Part shown: piece by piece, positions 4,092 to 24,000 of the stretch
Numbering within the stretch: position 1 is the stretch's first letter
How the letters are laid out: each line of letters starts with the position of its first letter
Assembly: GCA_036305845.1 (NCBI GenBank)
Contig: JAXKAR010000015.1
Coordinates: 9,674-33,673 of the forward strand
Length of the DNA: 24,000 bases
Origin: Emergencia sp.
GTDB taxonomy: Bacteria > Bacillota > Clostridia > Peptostreptococcales > Anaerovoracaceae
Direction: 5' to 3'
Made by a program: the position numbers and the translations under genes
Notes under the pieces: generated by a model
Database searches by the model: none
Seen by the model: the letters and a program-made list of their open reading frames with translations, nothing else
Told to the model about the DNA's origin: nothing

Positions 4092-4096
4092 TTACG

Positions 4097-7000: not shown

Positions 7001-7621
7001 TACGATATCGGTTACGGCGGTCTGGACCACGTACTGGCTTCCGGAGAAAACGTAAACGTTATGGTATTCGATACCGAAGTTTACTCCAATACCGGCGGAC
7101 AGTCATCCAAAGCTACGCCTATCGGTGCAGTCGCTAAGTTTGCGGCTTCCGGTAAGAATGTAAAGAAGAAAGACCTGGCACAGATTGCTATGGCTTACGG
7201 ATATGTATATGTAGCACAGATTGCTATGGGTGCAAATCCTGAGCAGACTCTGAAGGCAATCAGAGAAGCTGAGGCTTATGATGGACCTTCCCTGATTATC
7301 GCATATGCGCCTTGTATCAACCAGGGTCTGAAGGTTGGCATGAACAAGGCCATGTTAGAGATGAAGAACGCAGTTCGCGCCGGTTACTGGAACCTGCTTA
7401 GATTCAATCCTGTTCTGGCAGCAGAAGGTAAGAATCCACTTTCCATCGACAGCGGCGAACCAAGCGAAAATTACAGAGACTTCCTGATGAGCGAAGTTCG
7501 TTACAACTCCCTGCAGCTGAAGTTCCCTGAAAGAGCAGAAGAACTGTTCAGAAAGTCCGAAGAAATGGCTATGGACAGATACGCACATCTGCAGAATCAG
7601 AAGAAGAGCTACGATAATTAG
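4097..7621 (+). CDS. nifJ: Pyruvate:ferredoxin (flavodoxin) oxidoreductase, single-polypeptide type
   Basis: The canonical N-terminus 'KTMDGNTAAAHVAYAFSEVAAIYPITPSS' is present. The internal ferredoxin domain shows CMQCNWCSYVCP and CTGCGSCAQVCP. The TPP motif 'GGDGWAYDIGYGGLDHV' is present. The ORF track starts at GTG 4088, only 1 nt from the GGAGA ribosome-binding site (4082-4086). GTG 4097 gives a 10-nt spacing and an MRKLKTMDGN N-terminus, so I prefer it. Confidence 0.96.
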   Translation: MRKLKTMDGNTAAAHVAYAFSEVAAIYPITPSSPMAESMDEWVSQDRTNIFGEKVKIVEMESEAGAAGAVHGSITAGSYTSTFTASQGLLLMIPNMYKLAGEQTPTVFHVAARALATHALSIFGDHSDVMGCRQTGFAMLASNSVQQSMDLAAVAHLATIAGKLPMLHFFDGFRTSHENQKIEIWDYEDLKEMVDWDAVKAFKARSIHPMHPHSMGSAEQPETFFQHREACNSAYLETADLVNEYMEKVNAKIGTDYKPFNYYGAPDATEVIVAMGSVCDAAEELVDYLTAQGKKVGIIEVHLYRPFSVKYLLNVMPDTVKKIAVLDRTKEPGGLGEPLFLDVVAALRGTKFENCLVVGGRYGLGSKDTQPGDILAVYQNLWADEPKKEFTISITDDVTGLSLPTIENPDVAPAGTKACKFWGLGADGTVGANKNSVKIIGDHTDKKVQAYFQYDSKKSGGVTISHLRFGDEPIKSTYYVKQADFVACHNSAYLQRYDMVEDVKPGGFFLLNCVWSDEELEEHLPAKVKRYIAKNNVQFYTCDAVSIAKEIGLGARRTNSVLQAAFFKLADIIPIDEAVGYMKDAIKKTYGKKGEAIVNMNLAAVDAGVANVHKVDVPAAWADAPDDAPAPKMVGRDQVHTDYLNNILHPTNTLTGDAVPVSIFQDTANGMIPAGTAAYEKRGIATDIPVWNKDNCMQCNWCSYVCPHGVIRPFVMDETEVSGVNGDYLKMKGVKGKFFTLGISALDCTGCGSCAQVCPARKKALEIVPAENDVVLPAQEKYDYLFANVNEKEVPFKANTVKGSQFKQPLLEFSGACPGCGESPYAKLVTQLFGERMFIANATGCSSIWGCSAPSTPYTVNKEGRGPAWANSLFEDNAEFGLGMAISMQARRAELKSAVERVADTVGVPAKAWLASMDDAEAAEETGKILADACEKIADQNADAKYVVENKDMLIKPSMWIFGGDGWAYDIGYGGLDHVLASGENVNVMVFDTEVYSNTGGQSSKATPIGAVAKFAASGKNVKKKDLAQIAMAYGYVYVAQIAMGANPEQTLKAIREAEAYDGPSLIIAYAPCINQGLKVGMNKAMLEMKNAVRAGYWNLLRFNPVLAAEGKNPLSIDSGEPSENYRDFLMSEVRYNSLQLKFPERAEELFRKSEEMAMDRYAHLQNQKKSYDN

Positions 7622-7640
7622 GAAAGGAGGATGAAGAGTA

Positions 7641-8495
7641 ATGAAAATGTTTGAAGTAACATACAAAAGAAGACTGAATGACAACATGGTATGGCTGAAA
7701 ATCTATGCGCCTCTGGTAGCAAGAAAAGCAAGACCGGGTCAGTTCATCATCCTTCGTACTGATGAATACGGTGAGAGAATCCCTCTCACCATGGCCGGCC
7801 ACAACGAAGAGGACGGCACAATTGACCTGATTTATGCAGCAGTAGGCAGAACGACCATGCTGATGGATCAGCTTGAAGTAGGTGACTGCCTGGCTGATGT
7901 TGTAGGACCACTGGGAAAACCGACTCATATGGACGGTTTGAAGAAGGTCTGCGTAGTGGGCGGCGGCACAGGAAATGCACTGGCTTACCCACTGGCAACC
8001 GGTATGCATGACCATGGTGTAGAAACTGTTATGATTGAAGGTTTCAAAACTAAAGATCTGGTAATTTTGGAAGATGAATTCCGTGCAGGTGTAGATAAGC
8101 TCTACGTCATGACCGATGACGGCTCCTATGGAGAAAAGGGTTTCACCACTGCTAAGCTGGAAGAATTAATTCAGGCTGGCGAGAAGTTTGACGAAGTCAT
8201 CGCTGTAGGACCACCGATGATGATGAAGTTCACTTGCCAGATTGCAGAAAAATATGGCATTCATTCTGTTGCGTCTCTCACTGCATATATGATTGACGGA
8301 ACCGGTATGTGCGGCGGATGTCGCTGCAATATCGGCGGTGAAGACAAGTTCGTATGTGTGGACGGACCTGAATTTGACGGCGCCCTGGTTGACTGGGATG
8401 AGCTGATTCAGAGAAGCGCATATTACTCTGATCAGGAAGCAGAAGACAGAGCGCATGTATGCCGCTTGACAGGAGGTGTTCGTTACCATGATTAA
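7641..8495 (+). CDS. nfnA: NfnA-like subunit (ferredoxin-NADP reductase / sulfide dehydrogenase beta-type; FAD plus [2Fe-2S])
   Basis: The motifs 'APLVARKARPGQFIILRTDEYGERIPLT' and C-terminal 'GTGMCGGCRCNIGGEDKFVCVDGPEF' are present. A ribosome-binding site GGAAAGGAGG lies at 7621-7630. Confidence 0.85.
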   Translation: MKMFEVTYKRRLNDNMVWLKIYAPLVARKARPGQFIILRTDEYGERIPLTMAGHNEEDGTIDLIYAAVGRTTMLMDQLEVGDCLADVVGPLGKPTHMDGLKKVCVVGGGTGNALAYPLATGMHDHGVETVMIEGFKTKDLVILEDEFRAGVDKLYVMTDDGSYGEKGFTTAKLEELIQAGEKFDEVIAVGPPMMMKFTCQIAEKYGIHSVASLTAYMIDGTGMCGGCRCNIGGEDKFVCVDGPEFDGALVDWDELIQRSAYYSDQEAEDRAHVCRLTGGVRYHD

Positions 8496-9885
8496 TTTAG
8501 TAAGAGAAAAGAATCCGATGCCTGAACAGGACCCTAACGTTCGTAACAAGAACTTCCTGGAAGTTTCTTCGGGCTATACGGAAGAAATGGCCATCAACGA
8601 GGCAATGAGATGCCTTAAGTGCCGCAAAAAGCCTTGTATGTCCGGTTGTCCGGTAATGGTTAAGATTCCTGATTTTATCGCAAAGATTGCGGAAGGTGAG
8701 TTTGAAGAGGCTTATCAGATTATCAGCGAAACCAGCAGCCTTCCTGCGATCTGCGGACGTGTCTGCCCGCAGGAAAACCAGTGTGAAGGCAAGTGCGTTC
8801 ACGGTGTAAAGGGTGAACCTGTTGCTATCGGTCGTCTGGAAAGATTTGCTGCTGACTGGCATGCTGCAAATTGTGGTGACGAGGAAATCAAACCGGCAGA
8901 AAGCAACGGACACAAAGTTGCTGTTATCGGCGCAGGTCCGGCAGGCCTTGCATGTGCAGGAGACCTGATCAATAAAGGTTACGAAGTAACGGTTTACGAA
9001 AGCTTACATAAGACCGGCGGCGTTCTGGTTTATGGTATTCCGCAGTTCCGTCTGCCAAAGGAAATCGTAGCAGCTGAGGTTGCAAAACTGGAAGCTAAGG
9101 GCGTTAAGTTTGTGACCAATGCTATCGTAGGCCGCGCAATTACAGTAGATGAGCTGATGAAAGAAGAAGGATTTGAATCCGTATTCATCGGTACTGGCGC
9201 AGGACTTCCATCTTTTATGAAGATTCCGGGCGAAAATCTGCTGGGCGTATGCTCTGCTAACGAATATCTGACGCGTATCAATTTGATGAAGGCTTATCTG
9301 CCTGAGTACGATACCCCGATTCAGAAGGTAAACAGAATTGCTGTAGTCGGCGGTGGAAATGTTGCAATGGACGCTGCAAGATGTGCAAAGCGTATGGGTG
9401 CAGAAGAAGTATATATCATCTATCGTCGTAGCATGGATGAACTGCCTGCAAGAGCAGAAGAAGTTCATCACGCTATCGAAGAAGGCATTATCTTCAAACT
9501 GCTGACCAACCCTGTAGAAATCAAGGGTGACGAAAAAGGTCATGTGACCGGTATCGAATGTGTCAGCATGGAATTGGGCGAACCTGATGCTTCCGGAAGA
9601 AGAAAACCGGTTGTTATCGAAGGCTCCAACCATGTAGTTCCTGTAGATATGGTTATCATGTCTATCGGAACCAAACTGAACACCCTGATTTTGGATACTA
9701 CTGAAAATCTGGAAGCAAACCAGAAGGGCGGTATCGGCGCTGATGAAACTGCAGCAACCAACCGTGACGGCATCTTCGCCGGCGGTGACGCTGTAACAGG
9801 TGCAGCTACAGTAATCAAGGCTATGGGCGCAGGTAAAACTGCGGCTGCAGGAATTGATGAATACCTGGGCGGCGAGTGCAAGTAG
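8488..9885 (+). CDS. nfnB: NfnB-like subunit (GltD-type NADPH-dependent oxidoreductase; 2x[4Fe-4S] plus FAD)
   Basis: The motifs 'CLKCRKKPCMSGCP', 'ICGRVCPQENQCEGKC' and the dinucleotide fold 'VAVIGAGPAGLACAG' are present. The track start GTG 8476 lies inside the ribosome-binding site AGGAGG (8471-8476). ATG 8488 is therefore preferred, and it overlaps the nfnA stop (ATGATTAA), implying translational coupling. Confidence 0.85.
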   Translation: MINLVREKNPMPEQDPNVRNKNFLEVSSGYTEEMAINEAMRCLKCRKKPCMSGCPVMVKIPDFIAKIAEGEFEEAYQIISETSSLPAICGRVCPQENQCEGKCVHGVKGEPVAIGRLERFAADWHAANCGDEEIKPAESNGHKVAVIGAGPAGLACAGDLINKGYEVTVYESLHKTGGVLVYGIPQFRLPKEIVAAEVAKLEAKGVKFVTNAIVGRAITVDELMKEEGFESVFIGTGAGLPSFMKIPGENLLGVCSANEYLTRINLMKAYLPEYDTPIQKVNRIAVVGGGNVAMDAARCAKRMGAEEVYIIYRRSMDELPARAEEVHHAIEEGIIFKLLTNPVEIKGDEKGHVTGIECVSMELGEPDASGRRKPVVIEGSNHVVPVDMVIMSIGTKLNTLILDTTENLEANQKGGIGADETAATNRDGIFAGGDAVTGAATVIKAMGAGKTAAAGIDEYLGGECK

Positions 9886-10324: not shown

Positions 10325-10993
10325 ATGAAGAAGATTTTAATTGCAGGCTGGGAGACAGCCATTGACAAATATGATGACGATATTGCAGCTTTTGCTAAGT
10401 TGGGATGTAAAGCTTTTCTTTCCCTGCATCCTGAGGATGCGGATGACGTGGATGGTATTGTATTTCCCGGCAGCATGCAGGGGGTAAACCCTAAGCTTTG
10501 GGGCGCAGAGAGCCAGGAAAACTGTGAGCTGAACGATGAGCTGGATAGACTCCAGGGGGTTTTTCTGGAAAAAGCCATAGAGAAACGGATTCCGGTTTTG
10601 GGTATTTGCAGAGGCATGCAGTACATCAATGTCCATCTGGGCGGTACGCTGAATCAGAAGATTCCAAGCTGGCAGATTCATCGGATTACAAAGCCGGAAA
10701 GCTACCACCAGATGCATCCGATGGAGGGAACTTTTATGGAGAGGCTTTTCGGAGAAGAAACGGAAATCAACACCCGCCATTACTGGGCGGTAGAAAACCT
10801 GGGTAAGGGACTTTATCTTACTGCCTTGTGGCATAATCCCGATAGCCGGGAAGAACAGGTTATAGAAGGGTATGCCCACAAGGATTATCCCATCATTGGC
10901 GTCCAGTGGCATCCGGAGAGAATGGTAGTGCATGGAGATCCGGTTCAGCAGGAGAATGGCAAAAAGATGCTGGAATACTGGCTTAGTTTATAA
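10325..10993 (+). CDS. Class-I glutamine amidotransferase-like / peptidase C26 (gamma-glutamyl hydrolase family) protein, paralog 1
   Basis: The nucleophile elbow '[13 protein letters not shown]' and the His motif 'IIGVQWHPE' are present. Confidence 0.85.
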   Translation: MKKILIAGWETAIDKYDDDIAAFAKLGCKAFLSLHPEDADDVDGIVFPGSMQGVNPKLWGAESQENCELNDELDRLQGVFLEKAIEKRIPVLGICRGMQYINVHLGGTLNQKIPSWQIHRITKPESYHQMHPMEGTFMERLFGEETEINTRHYWAVENLGKGLYLTALWHNPDSREEQVIEGYAHKDYPIIGVQWHPERMVVHGDPVQQENGKKMLEYWLSL

Positions 10994-11007
10994 GGAAGGT
11001 GATACCC

Positions 11008-11682
11008 ATGAAAAGAATGATGATCGGCGGTTTTGAAAATGCGGAGAACCGATGTGACAATTATATAGAGGCATTTGCCAAGCTGGGCTGTGAAGCGTTT
11101 GTTTCTTTATCTGTGGAAGATCTTTTACATGCTGACGGACTGATTCTGCCGGGCAGCAGTCAAGATATGAACCCAAAGCTTTGGGGCGCAGAAGATGAAT
11201 GTTCCAATGACATTAACGATGGGTTAGATGCGTCCCAGTGGGCGCTTTTGGATCTGGCGAAAGAAACGAGTAAACCGGTTTTGGGAATATGCCGGGGAAT
11301 GCAGTTTATTAACGTGTATTTTGGCGGTACGTTGATCCAAGATTTAGACTGTGCAGAGTATCATAAAGCCGGCACGCCTGAACGGTATCATCAGCTGGAA
11401 ACTACTGAAGGCGGTTTCATGGAAGAACTCTATGGAAAGACTTGCCTGGTGAATACTCGTCATCACCAGGGGGTGGGACGTCTGGGCGATGGTCTTTCTC
11501 CCGCGGCGTTGTGGATAGATAATCGTCAGCAGGGCGAATCGGTTGTCGAAGCATTTTCCCACAAACAGTATCCGTTTATCGGCGTCCAGTGGCATCCGGA
11601 GAGGATGTTTGTCTGCGAAGAAAGAGAGGTTTCAATGGATGGAGAAAAATTGCTTCGCCATTGGCTTGGAGGTATAAAATGA
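11008..11682 (+). CDS. Class-I glutamine amidotransferase-like / peptidase C26 protein, paralog 2
   Basis: It carries the same motifs ('[13 protein letters not shown]', 'FIGVQWHPE'). By eye it is roughly 40-45% identical to paralog 1 over the full length. I prefer ATG 11008, which has ribosome-binding site AAGGAAGG at 10992-10999, over the track's GTG 10999. Confidence 0.85.
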
Positions 11683-12185
11683 TTAGGATATACAGAGGAG
11701 ATATAACAAAACTTCCGGTGGATGCTATTGTCAATGCAGCGAATCACAGTTTGCTTGGCGGCGGCGGTGTAGATGGAGCAATTCATCGGGCGGCAGGACC
11801 GGAGCTTTTGGCAGCCTGCCGTTTGCTTCACGGTTGTGAGACAGGGGATGCGAAAACGACAGAAGGATATCGGCTTGGTGCTAAGTACGTCATTCATACT
11901 GTAGGACCGGTATGGCAAGGTGGAGACCGGGGCGAAAGAGAAGCCCTTTCCGGCTGTTACCGGCGATCTTTGGAGGAAGCAGAGAAATATGGATGCAAAA
12001 CCGTTGCTTTTCCGGCAATCAGCACCGGGGTTTACGGCTATCCTAAGGAAGAGGCAGCAAAGACCGCATTACAGGCAATTCGTGCATATTTTGCAGCACA
12101 TAACAAGAGCTGTATAGAAGAGGTATTGCTGGTGGCTTTTGATGCGGCCAACGAAGAACTTTATCGAAGCTTGCTGAAGGTATAG
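11679..12185 (+). CDS. Macrodomain protein (MacroD/YmdB-type O-acetyl-ADP-ribose deacetylase / ADP-ribosyl hydrolase)
   Basis: The motifs '[27 protein letters not shown]' and '[13 protein letters not shown]' are present. ATG 11679 overlaps the upstream stop (ATGA) and follows GGAGG at 11668-11672. The track's start at 11589 is an in-frame over-extension into the previous gene. Confidence 0.9.
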
Positions 12186-12322: not shown

Positions 12323-12375
12323 AATCACGTAATCAAGTGAACAATAAAAAGAAAATAAATAAAAGGAGAAGAAAG

Positions 12376-13263
12376 ATGAAAAAGTTAAAGAAAATTTTAG
12401 CCGTAGGTATGGCGCTGGTTCTTATGGGAACAATGTTTACCGCATGTGGTGGTGGAGATGATTCTGCAGAAGGCGGCAGCGCAGCAGGCGGAATCCATGT
12501 TGTAACCCGTGAAGAAGGTTCCGGAACAAGAGGCGCTTTTGTCGAACTGTTCGGTATTGAAGTAAAAGACGATGCCGGTGAAAAAGTTGACCAGACAATC
12601 GAAACTGCAGAAGTAACCAACAGTACTTCCGTTATGATGCAGACTATCGCAGGCAATGAATCCGCAATCGGATATATTTCTCTGGGCTCCCTGGACGATA
12701 CAGTAAAAGCGCTCAAGGTTGACGGCGTTGAAGCTACTGCTGAAAATGTAAAGAGCGGCGACTACAAAGTTTCCAGACCGTTCAATATCGTAACTAAAGC
12801 AGATGTAAGTGAAACGGCTAAAGATTTTGTTTCCTATATCATGAGTGATGAAGGACAGGCTATTGTTGAAGAAGAAGGCTATATCAGTGAAGGCAGTGAA
12901 GGTGCATACGAAGGCGCAGGCGTTTCCGGCGAAATTACAATCAGCGGATCTTCCTCTGTAACACCGGTAATGCAGAAACTGGCAGAAGAATATATGGCAC
13001 TGAACAAAGATGTACAGATCAATGTACAGCAGTCCGATTCCACGACAGGCGTAACTGACGCAATCGAAGGCATCAGCGACATCGGTATGGCTTCCAGAGA
13101 AGTCAGCGAAGAAGAACTGGCACAGGGCGTTGAGGCACAGGCAATCGCACTTGACGGAATCGCAGTTATTGTAAACAACAACAGCACCCTTTCTGAAATC
13201 GCTTCCGAGTCCGTACTGGGTATCTATACCGGAACAATCACTGACTGGGCAGATGTGAAATAA
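12376..13263 (+). CDS. pstS: Phosphate ABC transporter substrate-binding lipoprotein PstS (circularly permuted variant)
   Basis: Ribosome-binding site AAAGGAG (12362-12368) precedes ATG 12376. The signal peptide has a lipobox Cys (MFTAC, TGT at 12445). The phosphate-binding motifs 'REEGSGTR' and 'ISGSSSVTP' are both present, but in reversed order relative to canonical PstS. Confidence 0.9.
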   Translation: MKKLKKILAVGMALVLMGTMFTACGGGDDSAEGGSAAGGIHVVTREEGSGTRGAFVELFGIEVKDDAGEKVDQTIETAEVTNSTSVMMQTIAGNESAIGYISLGSLDDTVKALKVDGVEATAENVKSGDYKVSRPFNIVTKADVSETAKDFVSYIMSDEGQAIVEEEGYISEGSEGAYEGAGVSGEITISGSSSVTPVMQKLAEEYMALNKDVQINVQQSDSTTGVTDAIEGISDIGMASREVSEEELAQGVEAQAIALDGIAVIVNNNSTLSEIASESVLGIYTGTITDWADVK

Positions 13264-13274
13264 GAAGAAAATCC

Positions 13275-14138
13275 ATGAATAGAAATTTTAAGGAAAAAGC
13301 AATGCAGCTGGTATTTTTACTGGCTGCATGTGCGTCGATTATCGCAGTAATTTTAATATGTGTATTCATGTTCGGAAACGGCATACCGACCATGAGTAAA
13401 ATTGGTTTTTGGAATTTCCTCTCTGGAACAGAGTGGAAACCGATGCAGGATATCTACGGCATACTGCCAATGATAGTAGGCAGTATTTATGTGACGGTAG
13501 GCGCGATTATTATCGGTGTGCCTATTGGTTTGCTTTGCGCTACTTATATGGCGAGATTCTGTACGCCAAGGCTTCACAGTATGATGAAACCGGCTGTAGA
13601 TCTGCTGGCGGGAATTCCGTCTATTGTTTACGGATTCTTTGGCCTTGTGGTTATTGTGCCACTGATGCAGGATATTTTCCCGGGAACAAGCGGAAAGGGC
13701 ATTCTGACGGCTTCCATCATGCTTGGGATTATGATTCTGCCGACAATTATCAGTGTGTCAGAAGCGTCTATCCGCGCCGTTCCCGAGCATTACTATGAAG
13801 GTGCGCTGGCTCTCGGCGCCACCCATGAACGCAGTGTGTTTTTTACCGTTTTACCGGCCGCAAAATCAGGCATTATGGCTGCAGTGATTCTAGGCGTTGG
13901 CCGTGCAATCGGAGAAACCCTTGCCGTATCGGTTATTGTCGGAAACAGTGCTGTTATGCCGGAAAGCATTCTCAGTATGGCCAGAACCATGACGACCAAT
14001 ATCGTTATGGAGATGGGTTATGCTCAGGGATTCCACAGAGACGCACTGATTGCGACAGCCGTAGTTCTGTTCGTGTTTATTCTGATTATCAATCTGCTCT
14101 TTAATCTGATTAACAACAGGAGGGCAAAGGAATGTTAA
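13275..14138 (+). CDS. pstC: Phosphate ABC transporter permease PstC
   Basis: It is a multi-TM protein with the EAA-type loop 'ALGATHERSVFFTVLPAAKSGI'. It occupies the first permease position in a pst operon. Confidence 0.9.
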   Translation: MNRNFKEKAMQLVFLLAACASIIAVILICVFMFGNGIPTMSKIGFWNFLSGTEWKPMQDIYGILPMIVGSIYVTVGAIIIGVPIGLLCATYMARFCTPRLHSMMKPAVDLLAGIPSIVYGFFGLVVIVPLMQDIFPGTSGKGILTASIMLGIMILPTIISVSEASIRAVPEHYYEGALALGATHERSVFFTVLPAAKSGIMAAVILGVGRAIGETLAVSVIVGNSAVMPESILSMARTMTTNIVMEMGYAQGFHRDALIATAVVLFVFILIINLLFNLINNRRAKEC

Positions 14139-14965
14139 AAAAGTATAAAGGTCAGCCGTTATCCCTCTTTCTCAGAATTCTTGTCAACTTGGCAGCGCTG
14201 ATTACGGTAGCGGTTCTGGTTTCTGTAGTGGGCTATATTCTGATTAAAGGCATTCCGAATCTGAAACCGGAGCTGTTTGCCTGGACGTTTACCACGGATA
14301 ATCAGTCCATGATGCCGGCAATTATCAATACACTGACGATTACGGCAGTAGCGCTTCTGATTGCAGTGCCGTTCGGTATTGGATCGGCAATCTATCTGGT
14401 GGAATATGCAAAAAGGGGAAACAAGCTGGTAAATGTTATTCGCCTGACGACGGAGACGCTATCGGGTATTCCTTCCATCGTGTATGGTTTGTTTGGCTAT
14501 CTGATGTTTGTCGTGGCTCTGGAATGGAGTTATTCTCTGTTGGCAGGAACATTGACGCTTGCGATTATGATTTTGCCGCTGATTATGCGAACCACAGAAG
14601 AAGCGCTGAAATCTGTGCCGGATACTTTCCGAGAAGGAAGCTTCGGCCTTGGTGCAGGAAAGCTGCGGACCGTATTTCGTATCGTTCTGCCTTCAGCCGT
14701 TCCCGGTATCCTGTCCGGTATCATTCTGGGAATAGGCAGAATTGTTGGCGAAACGGCAGCTTTAATATATACAGCAGGTACAGTTACAGGTGTTGCAAAC
14801 GGTCTCTTCTCCTCAGGACGAACCCTGTCAGTGCACATGTACGCACTCCTCTCCGAAGGGCTCTATACTGAACAGGCCTATGCAACGGCTGTAATACTGC
14901 TGATTGTGGTCATTGTCATCAATGCTATTTCCAGCATGATTGCAAAAAAGGTGACGAAGAAATAA
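14132..14965 (+). CDS. pstA: Phosphate ABC transporter permease PstA
   Basis: The loop 'GLGAGKLRTVFRIVLPSAVPGI' is present. It overlaps pstC by 7 nt, and AGGAGGG lies upstream. Confidence 0.9.
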   Translation: MLKKYKGQPLSLFLRILVNLAALITVAVLVSVVGYILIKGIPNLKPELFAWTFTTDNQSMMPAIINTLTITAVALLIAVPFGIGSAIYLVEYAKRGNKLVNVIRLTTETLSGIPSIVYGLFGYLMFVVALEWSYSLLAGTLTLAIMILPLIMRTTEEALKSVPDTFREGSFGLGAGKLRTVFRIVLPSAVPGILSGIILGIGRIVGETAALIYTAGTVTGVANGLFSSGRTLSVHMYALLSEGLYTEQAYATAVILLIVVIVINAISSMIAKKVTKK

Positions 14966-14977
14966 AGGGAGTTTTAC

Positions 14978-15727
14978 ATGGATAAATTTACGATAAAAGA
15001 TTTGAATTTATATTACGGTGATTTTCATGGATTGAAAGATATCAATCTGAACTTGCCGTCTAACGAGGTTACCGCCTTTATCGGCCCTTCCGGCTGTGGA
15101 AAATCCACTTTGCTGAAGACGCTGAACAGAATGAATGATCTGGTAGAAGGCTGCCGTATTGTAGGCGATGTACGACTGGATGGAGAAGACATCTATGGGG
15201 ATATGGACGTAAATAACTTGAGAAAACGGGTGGGCATGGTTTTTCAGAAACCAAATCCGTTTCCTATGAGCGTTTATGATAATATCGCCTATGGTCCCAG
15301 AACCCATGGCATTAGAAGTAAAGCGGAGCTGGATGAAATCGTTGAGACTTCGCTGAGAAATGCAGCAATCTGGGATGAACTGAAAGACAGACTGAAAAAA
15401 AGCGCTCTTGGCCTTTCCGGCGGGCAGCAACAGAGGCTTTGCATTGCCAGGGCTTTAGCGGTAAATCCGGAAGTGCTGCTGATGGACGAGCCAACCAGTG
15501 CGCTCGACCCAATCTCTACATCTAAAATCGAAGACTTGGCGCTGGAGTTAAAGGAAAAGTATACCATTATTATGGTTACCCACAATATGCAGCAGGCGCT
15601 TCGCGTATCAGATAATACCGCATTTTTCCTGTTAGGAGAAGTGATAGAATACGATAAGACAGAGAAACTCTTCTCTGTACCGTCCAACAAAAAGACGGAG
15701 GATTATATTACCGGGAGGTTTGGTTAA
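14978..15727 (+). CDS. pstB: Phosphate ABC transporter ATP-binding protein PstB
   Basis: Walker A 'GPSGCGKST', signature 'LSGGQQQR' and Walker B '[11 protein letters not shown]' are all present. Confidence 0.95.
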
Positions 15728-16389
15728 TGAGAAACAAATTCGACGAACAGCTTGCACTGCTTAATGTGGAGCTGATTAAGATGGGAAGTCTTTGTGAACT
15801 TGCGATTTCCAACGCAATTAAAGGGCTTCTGGATGATAATGACGAGCTGCTCCATCTGGCGGCAGAGACAGATAGTGAAATCGATGAGAAGGAAAGAGAA
15901 ATCGAGAATATGTGTTTCAAACTGCTCCTGCAGCAGCAGCCGGTAGCAAGAGACCTGCGAACGATTTCTGCAGCATTGAAGATGATTTCTGACATGGAGC
16001 GAATCGGTGATCAGGCTTCTGATATTGCAGAAATTGCAGAATTTATCGAAGGGGAGCAGTCCAAGGAACACACACATCTGAAAGCGATGGCTGAGGCGGC
16101 GTCAAAGATGGTGACAGAATCCATTAAGTCCTTTGTAGATAAGGATCTGCAGCTTGCCAATAAAGTTATGGGGGATGATGATGTAGTGGATCATCATTTT
16201 GAGCAAATGAAAGAAGACATCATTGGTTTGATTCGTCAGGGAGAAGCCAGCGCAGAGCTTTCTCTGGATCTGCTCATGATCGCCAAGTATTTGGAACGAA
16301 TCGGTGATCACGCTGTAAACGTGGCTGAGTGGGTAGAATTCTCTATTACCGGTCAGCATATGAGTGAAGAGATGAGAACCAGAATATAA
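15727..16389 (+). CDS. phoU: Phosphate signalling regulator PhoU
   Basis: It has the two-repeat PhoU architecture with 'MERIGDQASDIAE' and 'LERIGDHAVNVAE'. Its start overlaps the pstB stop (TAATG). Confidence 0.93.
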   Translation: MRNKFDEQLALLNVELIKMGSLCELAISNAIKGLLDDNDELLHLAAETDSEIDEKEREIENMCFKLLLQQQPVARDLRTISAALKMISDMERIGDQASDIAEIAEFIEGEQSKEHTHLKAMAEAASKMVTESIKSFVDKDLQLANKVMGDDDVVDHHFEQMKEDIIGLIRQGEASAELSLDLLMIAKYLERIGDHAVNVAEWVEFSITGQHMSEEMRTRI

Positions 16390-16494: not shown

Positions 16495-18000
16495 TTACGC
16501 AGCAGCTTTTTCTTCCTTGGTCTTCAGTCTTACCTTTGGTTCCTTTGGCAGTCCGAACAGAGGAATGAATCTGTCTGCGCCGGTGAAGGTCAGAAGCAGC
16601 ATGGAAGCAACTGCAATCATAGCCATGAAGTTGTACTTGATGAAGTCTGTGTTTGCGAAGTCGAACAGCGGATATACGTTGGCTGCGATACCTACATAGA
16701 AACCCAGATATACGTGCCATGGAATCAGCTGGGAACCGAATACGCCCATTGCATCTCCGAAAGTTGCGTTTCTCAGCTTAATCTTGTACATGTCTTCTTC
16801 TGTTTCAGCTACGATGTTTTCTTCTGCGATACCCTTGATGATTGGGCCAACAGTTACGATCTGTGCCATTTCGTCAGACAGAATGGCATTACCGGCAAGG
16901 CAGAGAACGCCGTTGCAGGTCATCAGCTGTCTTACGTTTCTGGAAATCTTGACGATCAGGTTTGCCAGCGGGTCAAAGGCCTTCATTGCGCCCATGATGC
17001 CGCCGAATGCAGCAACCCACATCATCATAACGACTACCCAGGATCCTGCGTCAGCAAAACCTGCCATACACATATCCAGGTATTCCTGCAGTCCGCCGGC
17101 TGCGAAGGAAGTTGTTCCTGCAAACAGTCCCAGGATATAAGCGGAAACGATACCGCTGCCGATGCAGGCAAAGGTGTTTACGCCAAGAACTGCTAAAACG
17201 ATAACCAGAATCAGCGGAATAATCATGTAAACAGCAACGCCGTGCTGTACCTGGTTCAGCAGATCGATAGCTTCCGGTCTTTCGCCTGCCAGATAGTCCA
17301 GCGCACTTTGCGGTACGGAATCCATAACGTTGGTTGCAACAACGGATTCACCAGGCAGATCCATAAGGATACCTGCAACGAAGAATGCAATTGCAGCCAG
17401 AATCAGACAGAGAACGGACCAAACGCCCTGACTTCTAATTCTGTCAACAACTTCTACGCCCTGAATACCGGAGGATACGATGGTGGTATCGGAAATCAGA
17501 CCGATATTGTCACCGAAGCATGCGCCGCCGGCGATTGCGCAGGTAGTCAGAAGCAGGCTTCCGGTTTCGATACAGTTCGGGTCAACGATATGTACTAACC
17601 ACAGGAAAATCGGTGCGCATGCAGCGAAGGTTCCCCAGGAAGTACCGGTTGCTACGGACAGAACAGCAGTTACACACAGACCGATAACGGCTGTAGTCTT
17701 TGCTGTTACGCCCAGAGACAGTGCGATGTTTACAACGGAAGCGCCTACGCCAGTAGACATGAATGCGCTTGCCATTGCATAGGCAAACATCAGGATGAAC
17801 AAGGCCACGATAATGTTGCTTACGCTGCTAATGGATGCATCAATACATTCTTTAAATGTAAGCTTTTCGGTAATTTTTGCTACCACTACGGCTACACAGG
17901 CAGCGATAGGCGCAGCAAGCAGTGCGTCTTGTCCGGTCATCATCAAGCCTGCCAGTACGATGATTGGCACGAACTTGAATGCGGCTTTTAGAAAATTCAT
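16495..18000 (-). CDS. NhaC-family (Na+/H+ antiporter-type) membrane transporter; substrate unknown
   Basis: 501-aa polytopic membrane protein whose composition and length fit the NhaC family (for example 'ATGTSWGTFAACAPIF' and 'GACFGDNIGLISDTTIVSS'). A strong ribosome-binding site AAAGGAGAAAG is read on the minus strand at 18004-18014. Confidence 0.75.
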   Translation of the reverse strand: MNFLKAAFKFVPIIVLAGLMMTGQDALLAAPIAACVAVVVAKITEKLTFKECIDASISSVSNIIVALFILMFAYAMASAFMSTGVGASVVNIALSLGVTAKTTAVIGLCVTAVLSVATGTSWGTFAACAPIFLWLVHIVDPNCIETGSLLLTTCAIAGGACFGDNIGLISDTTIVSSGIQGVEVVDRIRSQGVWSVLCLILAAIAFFVAGILMDLPGESVVATNVMDSVPQSALDYLAGERPEAIDLLNQVQHGVAVYMIIPLILVIVLAVLGVNTFACIGSGIVSAYILGLFAGTTSFAAGGLQEYLDMCMAGFADAGSWVVVMMMWVAAFGGIMGAMKAFDPLANLIVKISRNVRQLMTCNGVLCLAGNAILSDEMAQIVTVGPIIKGIAEENIVAETEEDMYKIKLRNATFGDAMGVFGSQLIPWHVYLGFYVGIAANVYPLFDFANTDFIKYNFMAMIAVASMLLLTFTGADRFIPLFGLPKEPKVRLKTKEEKAAA

Positions 18001-18062: not shown

Positions 18063-18078
18063 AGCAAGCACCGTGCCA
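18063..18078 (-). promoter_or_regulatory. Sigma-54 (-24/-12) promoter of the NhaC-family gene
   Basis: The minus strand reads TGGCAC-GGTGC-TTGCT, an exact match to TGGCAC-N5-TTGCW. It lies 62 nt upstream of the ATG at 18000. Confidence 0.85.
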
Positions 18079-18312: not shown

Positions 18313-20394
18313 ATGAAGAAATATTATGGTCTGGATAGAGTGCTGGAGCCTAAGGGCATGGTGCCTGCAACAGCATGGAAACTGGATAATGGCAAGAACC
18401 TGGGACCAAAAGAAGTCAGAATTTGTTTGGAGCGCATTCACCTTGAATGGGGGAACTTCCAACAGATTTGTTCCAGCTGTGGTTTTGACGAGGCAAAGAT
18501 GCGGGTTAAAATTATGGATATCATCGAAAAACGGGGAAAACTGCATAATCCGTTTACTGGTTCGGGCGGAGTTCTCATCGGAACAATTGATGAAATACCT
18601 GAGGCGAGCAGAGAAGGGCATGAGCTAAAGGAAGGCGATCGGATTTACTGTATCACTTCACTGAGCTGTATCCCTATATATATAGAAGACATTTTTGAAA
18701 TTGATTTTAACTACGGGCAGATTGTCTGTTCTGGTTATGCGATTCTCTTTGAAGCTTCTCCGGTGTATAGGATGGAAAAAGGGATGCAGCACAACTATAC
18801 TCTGGCAGCCATCGACGAGGCGGGAAGCCTTTTCGGCGCTTACAACATTGCGGTAGAGCATAAGAATCAGAATATTATTGTCATCGGGCGAAAAACTTAT
18901 ACGGTGGCCATGTATGCAGAAGCAGTGAGAGAGGCTACAGGCGCTTCCACCGAGGTGATTGCCATTATGGACAAACATGCTAAAGAAATTCTGACCCAGG
19001 AAGAAATTGAGAAAGCGCTGTCTCCACTGGTGAAAGCGACTTACTTTGTGGATTTAACTGATCCGGTCAATGCGTTCCATGGACTTCTTGCGCAGAATTC
19101 CAAATTGACTATGGCAGATCAGGTTATCGTGGCAGAAAATATTTTTGGTTCAGAGACCCTGGCCGTTATGCTGGTCAAATCCTTTGGTGACCTATATTTT
19201 ACGGCGGTGGAAAATCACTATTCAGAAGCACAGCTGGTGGCCGAATCTATGGGGAAAATTGTGACGATGTATGCTTTCGACCAGTACGTGAAAGACTATC
19301 CTGAGTTTACTATTCGGATCGTCAAAAGTATCAAACCGATACTGGATACGATCAATCATCTGTATATAGAACGAGAAAAGCAGTGGAGGAGAAACGAAAA
19401 TCGGGAAAAGAGTATGATCATAGAAAATGCCGGTAAACTGGATAATTTTGTTTATCAGAGTCAGGTAACCCGAAGTATGGTGGATGAGGTATTGAATATT
19501 GCCAAGTATGACTGTAATGTAATCATACAGGGAGAAACCGGCGTAGGGAAAGAGCGTGTGCTGTCCTTGATTCATCAGAACAGTGAACGATGTGGAAACC
19601 CTTGTATCAAAATAAACTGCGCAACTATTGCAGAAAGTTTGGCCGAATCTGAGTTTTTCGGATATGAAGCAGGCGCATTTACCGGTGCGCAGACAGCCGG
19701 AAAACCGGGATATTTTGAAATGGCCAATAAGGGAATTCTGTTTTTGGATGAAATCGGTACGCTCTCTATGAATATGCAGTCGAAGCTTTTACGGGTGCTG
19801 CAGGAAAATCAGTTCTATCGAGTTGGTGGAACCCATCAGGTATCCGTCAACGTGCGAGTTATCGTAGCGAACAATATTCCACTGAAGGAGCTTGTTGATG
19901 CAGGCAAATTCAGAGAAGACCTTTACTACAGATTGAATATCTGCAAAATTGATGTGCCGCCGCTGCGTGAGAGAAGAGCGGATATCCTTTGCCTGGCTAC
20001 TACTTTTGCGGCAAACTGGGCTAAAAAATACAACATCAGCAAGGAACTGTCTCAGGAAGCATTGGATAGTCTATATGATTATTATTGGCCGGGGAATGTG
20101 CGAGAACTGGAGAATGTGATTCACAGGCTGGTCATCAGCAGTAAGGATGTGGTTATTGGGAAAGAGGATGTGGATGAAATTCTGGGAGAAAATGACTACG
20201 ATAACAAGCTGCTCAATATGAAGAAGCATTTCGACCGTAATGAAAATCTGGATTTCCATCAGCTTATGGATCAGCAAGAAAAACTGATTATCGAATATGC
20301 ACTGAAACAGGAAGGGACTACCAGAAAGGCAGCGGATTTGTTAGGGCTGCCACAGACGACTTTTGCCAGAAAGAAGTTAAAGTACGGGTTATAA
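18313..20394 (+). CDS. Sigma-54-dependent enhancer-binding protein with an N-terminal MDR-dehydrogenase-like (3,5-diaminohexanoate dehydrogenase-like) sensor domain
   Basis: The AAA+ core shows Walker A GETGVGKE (19531-19554), GAFTGA (19672-19689), Walker B 'ILFLDEIG' and 'WPGNVRELEN'. A C-terminal Fis-type HTH 'TTRKAADLLGLPQTTFARKKLKY' is present. The N-terminal ~370 aa ('DRVLEPKGMVPATAWKLDN', 'RGKLHNPFTGSGGVLIGTIDEI', 'LKEGDRIYCITSL') resemble Kdd/MDR enzymes from memory. Confidence 0.92.
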   Translation: MKKYYGLDRVLEPKGMVPATAWKLDNGKNLGPKEVRICLERIHLEWGNFQQICSSCGFDEAKMRVKIMDIIEKRGKLHNPFTGSGGVLIGTIDEIPEASREGHELKEGDRIYCITSLSCIPIYIEDIFEIDFNYGQIVCSGYAILFEASPVYRMEKGMQHNYTLAAIDEAGSLFGAYNIAVEHKNQNIIVIGRKTYTVAMYAEAVREATGASTEVIAIMDKHAKEILTQEEIEKALSPLVKATYFVDLTDPVNAFHGLLAQNSKLTMADQVIVAENIFGSETLAVMLVKSFGDLYFTAVENHYSEAQLVAESMGKIVTMYAFDQYVKDYPEFTIRIVKSIKPILDTINHLYIEREKQWRRNENREKSMIIENAGKLDNFVYQSQVTRSMVDEVLNIAKYDCNVIIQGETGVGKERVLSLIHQNSERCGNPCIKINCATIAESLAESEFFGYEAGAFTGAQTAGKPGYFEMANKGILFLDEIGTLSMNMQSKLLRVLQENQFYRVGGTHQVSVNVRVIVANNIPLKELVDAGKFREDLYYRLNICKIDVPPLRERRADILCLATTFAANWAKKYNISKELSQEALDSLYDYYWPGNVRELENVIHRLVISSKDVVIGKEDVDEILGENDYDNKLLNMKKHFDRNENLDFHQLMDQQEKLIIEYALKQEGTTRKAADLLGLPQTTFARKKLKYGL

Positions 20395-20409
20395 ATGAGG
20401 AACAGTAAG

Positions 20410-23400
20410 ATGCAAGTGTATGAGGAGTTAAGGAATGCCCTGAAGGATAAAGGGTTTCTGAAAGAAATCGGAAAAACGCAGTCTCAGGTGGACACGGAGC
20501 TGATGCAGAATAACGGAAAAGCTTTTAGCCGGGCTCTCTGCGAAAGAGTGGGAGAGGGCGGCAGATTTTCCGTGCAGGATGTAGTGGAAACGGCCAAAGG
20601 ATGGATAAATCTTTTTTTGGATGAACCGGAAAACGGATGGGCAAATCACTGTTACCATTATATTCTGGGACAGATTTTTCCTGAAAAAGGACTGCCGGCA
20701 GATGCGGAAAACTATCGGCAGGGCAGACAGCTTTTACTGCAGATCCTCAGAGGAATTTATGCCTATGAGGCTAAATATCTGCCTTTTGATCCTACCAAAA
20801 ACCTGCAGCTTTTAAGTGACAAGGAGATACTTGAGGGAGGATTTACCCATGAGTATATAAAACTTCATAAATTAGTCAAGCAAAAATATATCTATGAGTT
20901 CATGCGCATAGGTGCGGATATTACGCCGTTTAATACCCTTGGGCATATTGGCGGAGTGCATTATGTAGCGCTGTATATGGCCAGACAGATGGCTGAAGCA
21001 GGGATACCTGTGGACCTGGGACTGGTTTCCGGTGCTGCAGCAGGACATGATATCGGCAAGTATGGCTGTAGAAAAAGTGAAGAGCGGCGGATTCCCTATC
21101 TGCACTATTACTATACGGATATTTGTTACAGCAGATTTGAGATGCCGAACATCGGTCATATTGCAGCAAACCATTCAACATGGGATTTGGAACTTGAGAA
21201 TCTGTCTGCAGAGTCGCTGCTTTTAATCTATGCGGATTTTCGTGTAAAAAGTGCACGTAACGAAATCGGTGAGGAAATCGTTCATTTTTATAGTCTTGAC
21301 GATGCATATCATGTGATTTTGGAGAAGCTGGACAATGTGGATGAGGTTAAACGGCTGCGTTACCAGAAAGTATATAATAAGCTGAAAGACTTTGAATCCT
21401 ACATGAAAGAAAACGGGGTGCAGACTTGTTTGCCGGCAGATTATAGCCAGAAACCGGAAAAGGCGGGAAAAAAGATTCAACGTGAACTTGTGCTGCTCAG
21501 CGGTCAGGATGTGGTTGATCAGTTGAAGTTCAGCGCTGTGGATCATAATATTCGTCTGATGAGTCGTTTTCACAGTGAGAGTGAATTCGGCAGTCTGATT
21601 GAGGCTGCGCGCAGCGAGCGTCAGTGGAAAAATCTGCGTACCTATATCAGCATCTTTGGTGAGTATTCTACTTACATGACAGAGAAACAGAAATTGCTGA
21701 CATTGAAGTTTCTTTACGAACTTTTGGCACATAAAGAAAGTGATATCAGAAACCAGGCAGCGCTGATTATGGGACAGATGATTGCCGGATTCAGCGATGA
21801 ATACAAAAAAGAGGTGCCTGAAGGAACCATGGTGCCGGATCGGATAGTAAATAATCTTACATTATGGGAACAATACCTGGATAAAATTATCATACCGGAT
21901 CACAAAATGACGGAGCAGCACCGAAAGTGGATCTCCAATTGTCTGGATAGAGTAGCAAAAGCCGTCCTTAATCAGTGTAAGGTTTCCTGCAGATACCGAT
22001 ATTTTGATATATTACAAAATTATTATCGAGAAGAAAAGATGTCTAAAGAAACAGTAATGGTTCTTTTGGATACGGCTTGTGTAATTTCGCCGGAAATCTG
22101 TACCAGTGAGTTTTTGCAGAGATTAGGTGCATTTTTGGCTGCTCAACATGGATGTTATGACAAGAGTATTGATATCGCTGTGCTGAAAACGGCCCACCAT
22201 TTTTTTCCGGGTTACAGTGACGACGATTATCGCAAAGATTTGCGAGAAGTCATGGGAATTTCAGGTGATGATACTGTCTTTGATGATAATCTGTCAGTTA
22301 TGTTTTTGGATAATCTGAAGACCGGAACCCCATGGATTCAGAAGGTGACAAATATTGCTTTTATGCTTGATTATGTGGCAGAAGGCAGTGATAAGGGCAA
22401 GATGCTTCATGTGGCAACCCACTTGGCCAATTTGCTGAAGGTCAGTGAGACGTTGACCGTTCGCCGAGCAGCGGGAGAAGGGCTGCTGGAGATTATTGGA
22501 CACATGCCGATGGAGCAGCGAAACGAACTGACGGTGGAACTGTTTAATGGTTTGGAGTTGGGAGACTATCAGTTTTCGAAATATGTACCCGACTATCTTG
22601 GTCTTGTCATGCTATATCTGCCGACTAAGGAGTTGGACGAGTCCGTAGACGAGCTGCAGAAAGTTTTGGAAACCGGAAATGAAAAAGCGGCTACTTCAGT
22701 TATCAATACGCTGGGGGTTATGGTAGAGCATTACGGGCAATATAAAGTAAGATTTTCTGAAGACCCGGCAATTACAGAAAAACGGCGTTTTCGTCTGCTG
22801 AATATGATTCTCAAAGCCTTTGCCAATTTTAATCCGATAGTTTCTCAGGAAGCATTTTGGACGTTGGGTGTACATCTTTTCGGCAGTGAAACCCTTTCCT
22901 TTGAGGAAAAGACAGAGCTGTTTCGTCATTGTTATAAAAAAGTCATGTCTTTACTGCTTGAGAAAAAAGAGGAAGACCTGGACTTTTACAATCATGCGGC
23001 AGTACTCAACCATATTTATCGTTACATTGCAAGATATCAGGTGGAAGAAGGTAATTTTGATCTGAAACCGGTTAAAAAAGTAGCGTTCTTCCCGGGAACG
23101 TTTGATCCGTTCAGTTTGGGTCACAAGGCGGTGGCTACGACCATAAGAAACATGGGATTCGAAGTCTATCTGGCTTTGGATGAGTTTTCCTGGTCAAAGA
23201 ATACCCAGCCTCGACTGCAGCGAAGAAAGATTATGACAATGTCCATCGCAGATGAGGACAACATTTTTGTCTTCCCGGAAGATATTCCGGTCAATATCGC
23301 CAATCCGGCAGATATCCGGCGATTGAAAGAAATTTTTAAGGGAAAAGAACTGTATATTGCCGTAGGAACAGATGTTATCAAAAATGCCTCTTGTTATAAG

Positions 23401-24000
23401 GCTCTGCCCGAAGAAGATTCTATCCATACCCTAAATCATATCGCCTTTGCCAGAGAGTCTAATGAACAGACTGCTTCTGCCGAAAAAGGATATCCGATTA
23501 CTGCACACGTGATTCACCTTACGCTGAAAAAATACTATGAGGATATCAGCTCAACTAAGATCAGAGAAAATATTGATTTGAACAGGGATATTTCTAACCT
23601 TATTGATACGGTTGCCCAGAATTACATTTATGACAGAAACTTGTATTTGCGGGAACCGGCGTACAAGCACATTTTACAGGCAAGGGAAATCAGTATCAGC
23701 CCTTATCGGCACAGGAATTTGGATGAAATGGACGGCATAGAGGAGGAAATGCTGGAGAGGGGCTATGATGTGGAAAAAGTACGCAAGTATCTTGAACGGG
23801 AAGGTGTGAGAAACTTATATGTGGAAAGCGGTATGCGTCACCGGCGTATCAATGCCTTTGCAGCTGCGCACCGTGTAGAAACCGGACAGCTTCTTGCAGA
23901 ATTTGAAGAACCTGCCGTTGCAGCACATATACGTGAAAATGCTTCCGGCAGTATTGCGGTTATCGGCGCATTGTTTACGGCGAAAGGCAAAAGTATTTCC
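20410..24000 (+). CDS. Giant multidomain protein, 3'-truncated by the window (>=1197 aa): HD phosphohydrolase domain, HEAT/ARM-like helical region, NadD/cytidylyltransferase-like domain, further C-terminal region
   Basis: This ORF is not in the supplied track. I translated it by hand line by line and found no stop in frame 1 from 20410 to 24000. Ribosome-binding site GAGGAA lies at 20397-20402; an alternative in-frame ATG lies at 20395. HD motifs are 'GHIGGVH' and 'AAAGHDIGK' (CAT-GAT at 21046-21051). HEAT-like signatures are 'SDIRNQAALIMGQMI' and 'TVRRAAGEGLLEIIG'. Nucleotidyltransferase motifs are 'GTFDPFSLGH' (23095-23124) and 'ISSTKIR' (23545-23565). Confidence 0.85.
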   Translation, partial: MQVYEELRNALKDKGFLKEIGKTQSQVDTELMQNNGKAFSRALCERVGEGGRFSVQDVVETAKGWINLFLDEPENGWANHCYHYILGQIFPEKGLPADAENYRQGRQLLLQILRGIYAYEAKYLPFDPTKNLQLLSDKEILEGGFTHEYIKLHKLVKQKYIYEFMRIGADITPFNTLGHIGGVHYVALYMARQMAEAGIPVDLGLVSGAAAGHDIGKYGCRKSEERRIPYLHYYYTDICYSRFEMPNIGHIAANHSTWDLELENLSAESLLLIYADFRVKSARNEIGEEIVHFYSLDDAYHVILEKLDNVDEVKRLRYQKVYNKLKDFESYMKENGVQTCLPADYSQKPEKAGKKIQRELVLLSGQDVVDQLKFSAVDHNIRLMSRFHSESEFGSLIEAARSERQWKNLRTYISIFGEYSTYMTEKQKLLTLKFLYELLAHKESDIRNQAALIMGQMIAGFSDEYKKEVPEGTMVPDRIVNNLTLWEQYLDKIIIPDHKMTEQHRKWISNCLDRVAKAVLNQCKVSCRYRYFDILQNYYREEKMSKETVMVLLDTACVISPEICTSEFLQRLGAFLAAQHGCYDKSIDIAVLKTAHHFFPGYSDDDYRKDLREVMGISGDDTVFDDNLSVMFLDNLKTGTPWIQKVTNIAFMLDYVAEGSDKGKMLHVATHLANLLKVSETLTVRRAAGEGLLEIIGHMPMEQRNELTVELFNGLELGDYQFSKYVPDYLGLVMLYLPTKELDESVDELQKVLETGNEKAATSVINTLGVMVEHYGQYKVRFSEDPAITEKRRFRLLNMILKAFANFNPIVSQEAFWTLGVHLFGSETLSFEEKTELFRHCYKKVMSLLLEKKEEDLDFYNHAAVLNHIYRYIARYQVEEGNFDLKPVKKVAFFPGTFDPFSLGHKAVATTIRNMGFEVYLALDEFSWSKNTQPRLQRRKIMTMSIADEDNIFVFPEDIPVNIANPADIRRLKEIFKGKELYIAVGTDVIKNASCYKALPEEDSIHTLNHIAFARESNEQTASAEKGYPITAHVIHLTLKKYYEDISSTKIRENIDLNRDISNLIDTVAQNYIYDRNLYLREPAYKHILQAREISISPYRHRNLDEMDGIEEEMLERGYDVEKVRKYLEREGVRNLYVESGMRHRRINAFAAAHRVETGQLLAEFEEPAVAAHIRENASGSIAVIGALFTAKGKSIS

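Follow-up and report, generated by a model that had tools for sequence, protein, structure and literature searches.

What is encoded by a reading frame that opens near the end of a stretch of bacterial DNA, meets no stop codon before the last base and is absent from the accompanying list of open reading frames (ORFs)? This question is raised by a 24,000-nucleotide (nt) stretch of Emergencia sp. DNA (contig JAXKAR010000015.1), the whole of which is referred to here as the window. An earlier note on the window had proposed a giant gene, which combines a phosphohydrolase, a helical scaffold and a nucleotidyltransferase in one polypeptide. The frame turned out to cover the 5' three quarters of a single intact gene, which belongs to an Emergencia-like Clostridium; the gene product of 1589 amino acids (aa) is called the giant protein in the following. 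The giant protein represents an uncharacterised, widely conserved architecture, which is built, like its operon, from familiar parts. It is tentatively predicted, at somewhat less than even confidence, to handle an aromatic-base ribotide and its adenine dinucleotide, making and turning over both, and to be coupled to two redox partners.

Translation of the window from the ATG at position 20410 to base 24000 in frame 1 of the forward strand gives 1197 codons without a stop, whereas the remaining five frames contain 57, 94, 19, 66 and 61 stops in the same interval. This partial coding sequence (20410..24000, +) covers codons 1-1197 of 1589, and its GC content per codon position (0.53, 0.32 and 0.45) agrees with that of the adjacent gene for a sigma-54 activator. 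The frame is missing from the ORF list because the list omits ORFs that run off the source, as the earlier note had presumed. Over the ORF and 2955 nt upstream of it, the window agrees in every base with an independent Logan assembly (L001), which contains the complete gene at its positions 2956-7725 with a stop after 1589 codons; the last 392 codons lie past the end of the window. Furthermore, a homology search recovered a 100% identical protein of 1589 aa from a metagenome-assembled genome (MAG) of Emergencia sp. (P0001). The identity with L001, the stop after 1589 codons and P0001 therefore show that this is one intact gene and not several genes fused by a sequencing error, and the predictions that the frame is free of stops and frameshifts and continues beyond the window were borne out. 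A ribosome-binding site, GAGGAA (20397..20402, +), can be read 7 nt 5' of the ATG at 20410, and the start chosen by the gene caller in P0001 agrees with this codon; a second in-frame ATG is possible at 20395.

A search of 1.84 billion cluster representatives yielded 860 matches, 300 of them at E <= 1e-30. Full-length members are nearly all 1550-1740 aa long, and their identity to the giant protein goes down to 26%. The gene is found at at least 594 loci in GTDB species genomes. The best 80 of these belong nearly all to the Clostridia (including Anaerovoracaceae, Mogibacterium, Blautia, Anaerotignum, Tyzzerella, Oscillospiraceae, Peptococcaceae, Sedimentibacter and Eubacterium pyruvativorans) and the Negativicutes (Megasphaera, Colibacter and Acidaminococcaceae), with one Spirochaete MAG among them. 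Conservation was assessed in a core-family alignment of 32 sequences with identities down to ~52%, and 29 divergent members were scanned with Pfam.

Domains of the giant protein

The giant protein contains a NadD/NMNAT-like nucleotidyltransferase (NT) domain of the HxGH superfamily (aa ~888-1095; 23071..23694, +). This domain had been recognised in the earlier note as a cytidylyltransferase-superfamily domain by its two signature motifs, GTFDPFSLGH (aa 896-905; 23095-23124, +) and ISSTKIR (aa 1046-1052; 23545-23565, +), whose positions proved to be exact, as did that of the HD motif described below. The query alone reaches 46.7 bits with the CTP_transf_like model PF01467 (cutoff 21), and both motifs are invariant among the core members. 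The domain can be aligned end to end with the NadD proteins of S. aureus and E. faecium, and the top 44 Foldseek matches in the PDB are all NadD. In both sequence and structure, NadD thus matches the whole domain best, JGI and UniRef label the protein as nicotinate-nucleotide adenylyltransferase, and fusions of NadD to an HD hydrolase exist as the curated family PRK07152. These points speak for a housekeeping nicotinate mononucleotide (NaMN) adenylyltransferase, fused to a YqeK-like HD hydrolase and to accessory domains, which would serve ordinary NAD biosynthesis. This explanation is nevertheless unlikely. All equivalog models are missed widely: the domain scores 48 bits with TIGR00482 (NadD; cutoff 112.45), 41.2 bits with NF000840 (NadD; cutoff 150) and 38.9 bits with the NadD-YqeK fusion model PRK07152 (cutoff 315), of which only the NadD half (positions 1-197 of 361) is aligned and the HD half is not. 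PPHK and SYTxDT are the NaMN-binding motifs of NadD, as known from NadD structures; at their positions, the giant family carries the family-specific invariant motifs SWSK and NIANPxD (NIANPAD in the query). In addition, one subclade has a glutamine for the motif histidine, the NT domain is degenerate in some members, and a role in ordinary NAD biosynthesis leaves the fixed pairing with a dehydrogenase and a flavoprotein (see below) unexplained. No stand-alone NadD gene was found in the ~6 kb flanks on either side of the gene, a result that is uninformative as to whole genomes. Taken by its sequence, the giant protein appears not to be the housekeeping NadD.

The NT domain also resembles phosphopantetheine adenylyltransferase (PPAT). 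A comparison with E. coli CoaD using hhalign gave a probability of 96%, the SxGH of the first motif is similar to the TxGH of PPAT, and matches to many PPAT chains were obtained with the N-terminal half of the domain. Since a GNAT fold is present as well, the giant protein could be an enzyme of coenzyme A (CoA) or phosphopantetheine metabolism, comparable to those dealing with phosphoribosyl-dephospho-CoA prosthetic groups: the NT domain would be PPAT-like, the GNAT fold would bind CoA, the HD domain would remove phosphate and the phosphoribosyltransferase-like domain would handle the phosphoribosyl moiety. Such a function is very doubtful, however. The PPAT matches span only the first ~60-85 residues, whereas NadD/NMNAT matches cover the whole domain, including the part after ISSTxIR; with the PPAT/CoaD equivalog TIGR01510, 24.6 bits are reached instead of 103.3 and only model positions 2-67 are aligned. 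The match to the citrate lyase synthetase CitC is negligible, and no genes of the CoA pathway or of citrate lyase are located in the flanks of 83 loci. Moreover, the aromatic residue Y996, which is kept in at least 90% of the members, aligns with the conserved tryptophan in the 'KWY' segment of NadD. In NadD structures, this tryptophan stacks on the pyridine ring, and the aromatic residue at its position therefore favours a ribotide over a phosphopantetheine substrate.

A deviation from the first motif was observed in the subclade formed by P0191, P0198, P0199, P0207, P0209, P0214 and P0236, which has SLGQ instead of SLGH (aa 902-905 of P0001). The exchange of histidine for glutamine suggests that adenylyl transfer is altered or lost in that lineage.

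The second putative catalytic module is an HD metal-dependent phosphohydrolase domain (aa ~166-345; 20905..21444, +), which is supported by its motifs, Pfam, the PDB and hhalign. Its ligand set, H179, H213-D214 (21046-21051), H232, H255 and D276, is invariant in the 32 core members and retained in most members at 26-40% identity. For the query alone, the Pfam HD model PF01966 gives 13.4 bits (E 0.1), which is below the gathering cutoff of 22; the same model matches 14 of the 29 divergent members with a best E of 2.4e-4, in line with the assignment made in the earlier note. The PDB HD protein 1xx7 matches the region with an E of 0.045, and in hhalign comparisons, the H and HD motifs fall on those of Dgt, YfbR and GlnD. 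HD enzymes with the six ligands H, HD, H, H and D are typically two-metal phosphodiesterases or pyrophosphohydrolases and not simple monoesterases. The conservation of all six ligands suggests that the HD domain of the giant protein likewise contains a two-metal centre.

Between the HD and NT domains lies a HEAT/ARM-type alpha-solenoid of ~500 aa (aa ~366-880; 21505..23049, +), which is recovered by AlphaFold, Foldseek and Pfam. The AlphaFold model of aa 1-885 has a predicted local distance difference test score (pLDDT) of 80.6 and a predicted template modelling score (pTM) of 0.75; the solenoid itself consists of ~25 paired helices with pLDDT values of mostly 80-95. Foldseek matches it to PP2A-A, CAND1, karyopherins and TOG domains (E 2e-4 to 3e-3, probability ~1.0), so that the HEAT-type repeats noticed in the sequence are confirmed by the predicted structure. 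The Pfam HEAT model matches 12 of the 29 divergent members (best E 8.5e-6), the query alone staying below the gathering score, and a PDB profile search returned designed helical repeat proteins. The HD domain is preceded by an all-helical N-terminal region (aa 1-165; 20410..20904, +; helices H2-171 of the AlphaFold model), for which a Pfam scan of aa 1-165 found no family match.

The NT domain is followed by a GNAT-fold domain (aa ~1096-1335), whose first ~100 residues are encoded in the window (23695..24000, +) and which runs past its end. Its segment of the AlphaFold model has pLDDT values of 80-94. Foldseek searches of the PDB matched this segment to NatD and Kre33, and dozens of viral GNATs were found with a probability of 1.0, template modelling scores of 0.5-0.7 and root mean square deviations of 3.5-5.5 A. 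A GNAT-like domain had been offered as a guess in the earlier note, which was right at the level of the fold; no Pfam acetyltransferase family is among the matches of the 29 members. The C-terminal domain (aa ~1336-1589), which lies wholly outside the window, resembles a divergent type-I phosphoribosyltransferase (PRT) according to Pfam and hhalign. In hhalign comparisons, the 5-phosphoribosyl 1-pyrophosphate (PRPP) loops of E. coli Apt, Hpt, PyrE, PurF, Prs and Upp all fall on the conserved segment RPVILIDD, and Apt is matched with a probability of 67% (E 5e-5). The core contains the pyrophosphate (PPi)-type loop VPFGK upstream and the PRPP-type loop RPVILIDDLLHKG. The acidic pair D1406-D1407 is conserved, D1406 being present in at least 90% of the divergent members. 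Profile searches with the whole family against PDB sequences gave no match for the GNAT-like or the PRT-like region.

The three-gene operon and the predicted role

The giant gene opens a conserved operon of three genes. When all flanking ORFs of 83 loci were clustered, exactly two conserved neighbours emerged and nothing else was conserved. A gene for a dehydrogenase similar to lactate dehydrogenase (LDH) and malate dehydrogenase (MDH) is located directly downstream in 75 of the 83 loci, at a median distance of 21 nt, and overlaps the stop codon of the giant gene in Emergencia and Hornefia. It is followed by an FMN_red-like gene in 70 of the 83 loci. A survey of distribution and neighbours, as proposed in the earlier note, thus places the giant gene in a redox operon. 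The LDH-like partner, which has the fold of a carboxylate-type NAD(P)-dehydrogenase, matches the profiles of LDH and MDH structures (E 1.6e-10) and keeps the equivalents of the catalytic His195 and of the substrate-binding residues Arg109 and Arg171. The third protein (L001 8741-9409) carries an FMN_red domain (E 1e-17 to 1e-19) and four invariant cysteines, C225, C228, C233 and C242, in the motif DCxGCxYExCxHF...CFYGG; based on this motif, it is probably an Fe-S flavoprotein. Its conserved N-terminal half of ~170 aa precedes the FMN_red domain, contains the motifs GESG, VDGxSELFTK and EATGSLxNF and has no Pfam or PDB match. For the third protein as a whole, no solved relative was found by sequence.

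Two divergent loci differ from this arrangement. The locus of P0203 (32% identity; L091 11117-13607) has kept the overlapping LDH-like gene, and a Peptidase_U32 protein replaces the flavoprotein. Neither partner is present next to P0254, a very divergent member with degenerate HD and NT motifs (L090 6001-10677).

The role predicted for the giant protein, namely the synthesis and turnover of a ribotide and its adenine dinucleotide, can be broken down into steps. The PRT-like domain would bind PRPP or another 5-phosphoribosyl compound or ribotide and possibly form the ribotide, which would be adenylylated by the NadD-like domain in an ATP-dependent reaction. In the product or in a by-product, a phosphoanhydride or phosphodiester bond may then be cleaved by the HD centre, which would allow turnover or proofreading, and a ligand may be bound or acylated by the GNAT-fold domain. 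The solenoid would hold these domains together and probably also the dehydrogenase and flavoprotein partners. A more specific version, in which a non-canonical dinucleotide cofactor is both assembled and recycled by the one chain of the giant protein, is improbable. According to this version, the PRT-like domain would ribosylate an aromatic base, the NadD-like domain would adenylylate the resulting ribotide and the HD domain would recycle the product, and the LDH-like dehydrogenase and the Fe-S flavoprotein would be dedicated users or maturases of the cofactor; if true, anaerobic gut Firmicutes would possess a redox cofactor system that has so far escaped notice.

Several observations weigh against the predicted role in ribotide and dinucleotide metabolism. 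The acetyl-CoA P-loop motif Q/RxxGxG/A is absent from the GNAT-fold domain; after strand beta4, the giant protein reads AKGKSISGINQ, and the family consensus is without the glycine pair. In the PRT-like domain, H-K-G-Y-R stands in place of the T/S-G-x-T half of the PRPP loop, the Pribosyltran model PF00156 matches 9 of the 29 members with a best E of 0.003, all below the gathering score, and the AlphaFold model of the C-terminal part has a mean pLDDT of 68, with values of 28-65 over much of this domain. The known pyridine PRTs PncB, NadC and NadV are of type II and not of type I. PRT folds act as sensors in PurR and PyrR, and by analogy the PRT-like domain could serve to sense a ligand. No riboswitch was revealed upstream of the operon when the window and seven diverse loci were scanned with Rfam, and there is no regulon pointing to a metabolite either. 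Finally, the HD, NT or DD motifs are degenerate in some divergent members, which have retained their length; since one such member has also lost both partners, not all members can work as proposed.

The combination of an NT and an HD domain in one chain, the long solenoid of a protein-binding type and the tight, often translational coupling to the LDH-like gene are all shared with what is expected of a writer/eraser system similar to GlnD and GlnE. In such a system, the NT domain would nucleotidylylate a protein, for example the LDH-like partner on the HEAT scaffold, the HD domain would remove the mark, and the PRT- and GNAT-like domains would sense metabolites, as would fit the sensor function of the fold in PurR and PyrR. 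This is improbable because the NT domain is a member of the HxGH (NadD/PPAT) superfamily, whose representatives, to our knowledge, act on small molecules and not on proteins. The NT domains of GlnD and GlnE are of the pol-beta type, and no such domain was found among the Pfam matches of the query and the 29 members. The analogy to GlnD drawn in the earlier note therefore holds as a resemblance and fails as a membership. The same applies to the analogy to NadD/YqeK, given the PRK07152 score reported above.

Alternatively, the giant protein might be mainly a scaffold or pseudoenzyme, in which the domains that look catalytic bind ligands and serve to organise or regulate the dehydrogenase and the flavoprotein. 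The loss of HD, NT or DD motifs at constant length in divergent members and the missing canonical cofactor motifs of the PRT- and GNAT-like domains are consistent with this possibility. It is rather improbable, however, as the catalytic residues of both the HD and the NT domain are invariant in the 32 core sequences, the giant protein included, and are retained in most members at 30-40% identity. In addition, the most degenerate member examined is without the two partners, which speaks against a function that consists only in holding this pair.

Large multidomain proteins that process nucleotides are common in defence systems, and a role in an anti-phage or conflict system, with NAD-type nucleotides being depleted or rebuilt, was considered as well. 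A search against PADLOC returned no family at E <= 1, and this explanation was rejected for want of a match. It is also extremely unlikely on genomic grounds: the neighbours are housekeeping genes, no mobile-element genes are located nearby, and the gene appears to be vertically conserved with a fixed architecture in at least 594 species.

Genomic surroundings of the giant gene

The giant gene is preceded, at a distance of 16 nt, by a gene for a sigma-54 enhancer-binding protein (18313-20394, +). The N-terminal sensor of this activator resembles the N-domain of L-erythro-3,5-diaminohexanoate dehydrogenase (KDD_N), an enzyme of lysine fermentation. The activator was first suspected to be a regulator of the giant gene. 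This was rejected because the two genes adjoin only in the Emergencia/Hornefia group, the 16-nt gap contains no promoter, and a perfect sigma-54 promoter occurs only once in the window (TGGCACGGTGCTTGCT; 18063-18078, -), where it faces the divergent gene for a transporter of the Na_H_antiporter family (16495-18000, -). The activator probably serves another gene and not the giant gene, and the transporter and the activator may form a regulon that responds to an intermediate of lysine fermentation. In this organism, the giant gene may be co-transcribed with the activator gene.

Further upstream, a complete phosphate-uptake operon, pstS-pstC-pstA-pstB-phoU, was identified (12337-16389, +). In Hornefia (L002), this operon likewise lies upstream of the giant gene, and the local synteny is therefore shared. 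Tandem paralogues of the Peptidase_C26/class-I glutamine amidotransferase family (10325-10993 and 10999-11682, +) are followed by the ORF of a Macro-domain protein (11589-12185, +). The true start of this ORF is probably located further downstream, since the listed GTG overlaps the second Peptidase_C26 paralogue. An oxidoreductase cluster (2829-9885, +) encodes a poly-ferredoxin protein of 420 aa and a 2-oxoacid:ferredoxin oxidoreductase of the PFOR type with 1177 aa, together with a protein that carries an Fe-S binding domain of the DHODB type and an NAD(P)H oxidoreductase similar to GltD. Close to the start of the window, a tRNA-Arg(ACG) gene is found on the reverse strand (883-959, -).

Relation to known systems

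In source databases, members of the family are named 'phosphohydrolase', 'nicotinate-nucleotide adenylyltransferase' or 'hypothetical'. In light of the comparisons above, the first two labels would be misannotations, which distort reconstructions of NAD biosynthesis in microbiome genomes. NCBIfam has no curated model that covers the full-length giant protein, solved structures in the PDB are limited to distant relatives of the NadD-like domain, and a literature search, which included accessions and the composition of the operon, found no description of the family. Together with the result for PADLOC, this agrees with the statement of the earlier note that no characterised protein has the same architecture. 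The family comprises proteins of ~1600 aa with five nucleotide-handling or scaffold modules in hundreds of Firmicute species of the gut and rumen (Megasphaera, Blautia, Anaerotignum, Mogibacterium, Anaerovoracaceae). It would be a rare bacterial case of a long HEAT solenoid that organises enzymes, and its function, once worked out, could reveal a new branch of the metabolism of NAD-type or other dinucleotides, or of its regulation, in strict anaerobes.

Of the known enzymes, NadD/NMNAT (PF01467, TIGR00482) is closest, as the fold and both signature motifs are common to the whole domain of ~200 aa. In the giant protein, however, this domain is embedded at positions 888-1095 of 1589 aa, scores under half of the equivalog cutoff, has a serine for the first motif histidine and has replaced PPHK and SYTxDT. 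A NadD-like NT domain and an HD hydrolase likewise occur together in Mollicutes, as the NadD-YqeK fusion, and in Firmicutes, as the nadD-yqeK gene pair, sharing a polypeptide or an operon. The giant protein differs from both arrangements by the reversed order with the HD domain first, the ~500 aa solenoid in between and three further domains, and its HD part cannot be aligned to the YqeK half of PRK07152. GlnD also combines nucleotide-adding and nucleotide-removing HD domains in a large regulatory protein; its NT domain, however, is of the pol-beta type, whereas that of the giant protein is of the HxGH type and is not accompanied by ACT domains, and the hhalign alignment of the HD regions extends over no more than 15 residues at the HD motif.

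The C-terminal domain shares the hydrophobic strand, the acidic pair and the helix (RPVILIDD...) with type-I PRTs (Apt, Hpt, PyrE, Upp, the C-domain of PurF and Prs; PF00156), and its upstream VPFGK loop resembles the PPi loop of these enzymes. In contrast to them, it has H-K-G-Y-R for T/S-G-G-T, gives Pfam scores below the threshold and possesses ~110 extra C-terminal residues with the invariant motifs YPFIGGD and NLILPY. CitC pairs a GNAT fold with a nucleotidyltransferase of the HxGH superfamily as well, but the domain order is opposite, hhalign gives a probability of 5% for either domain, and a weak Citrate_ly_lig match was found in one of the 29 members; a CitC-like function was rejected because of this negligible profile similarity. 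Judged by sequence, each module of the giant protein belongs to a well-known superfamily, whereas the protein itself falls outside NadD, PPAT, PRK07152 and the GlnD and CitC types.

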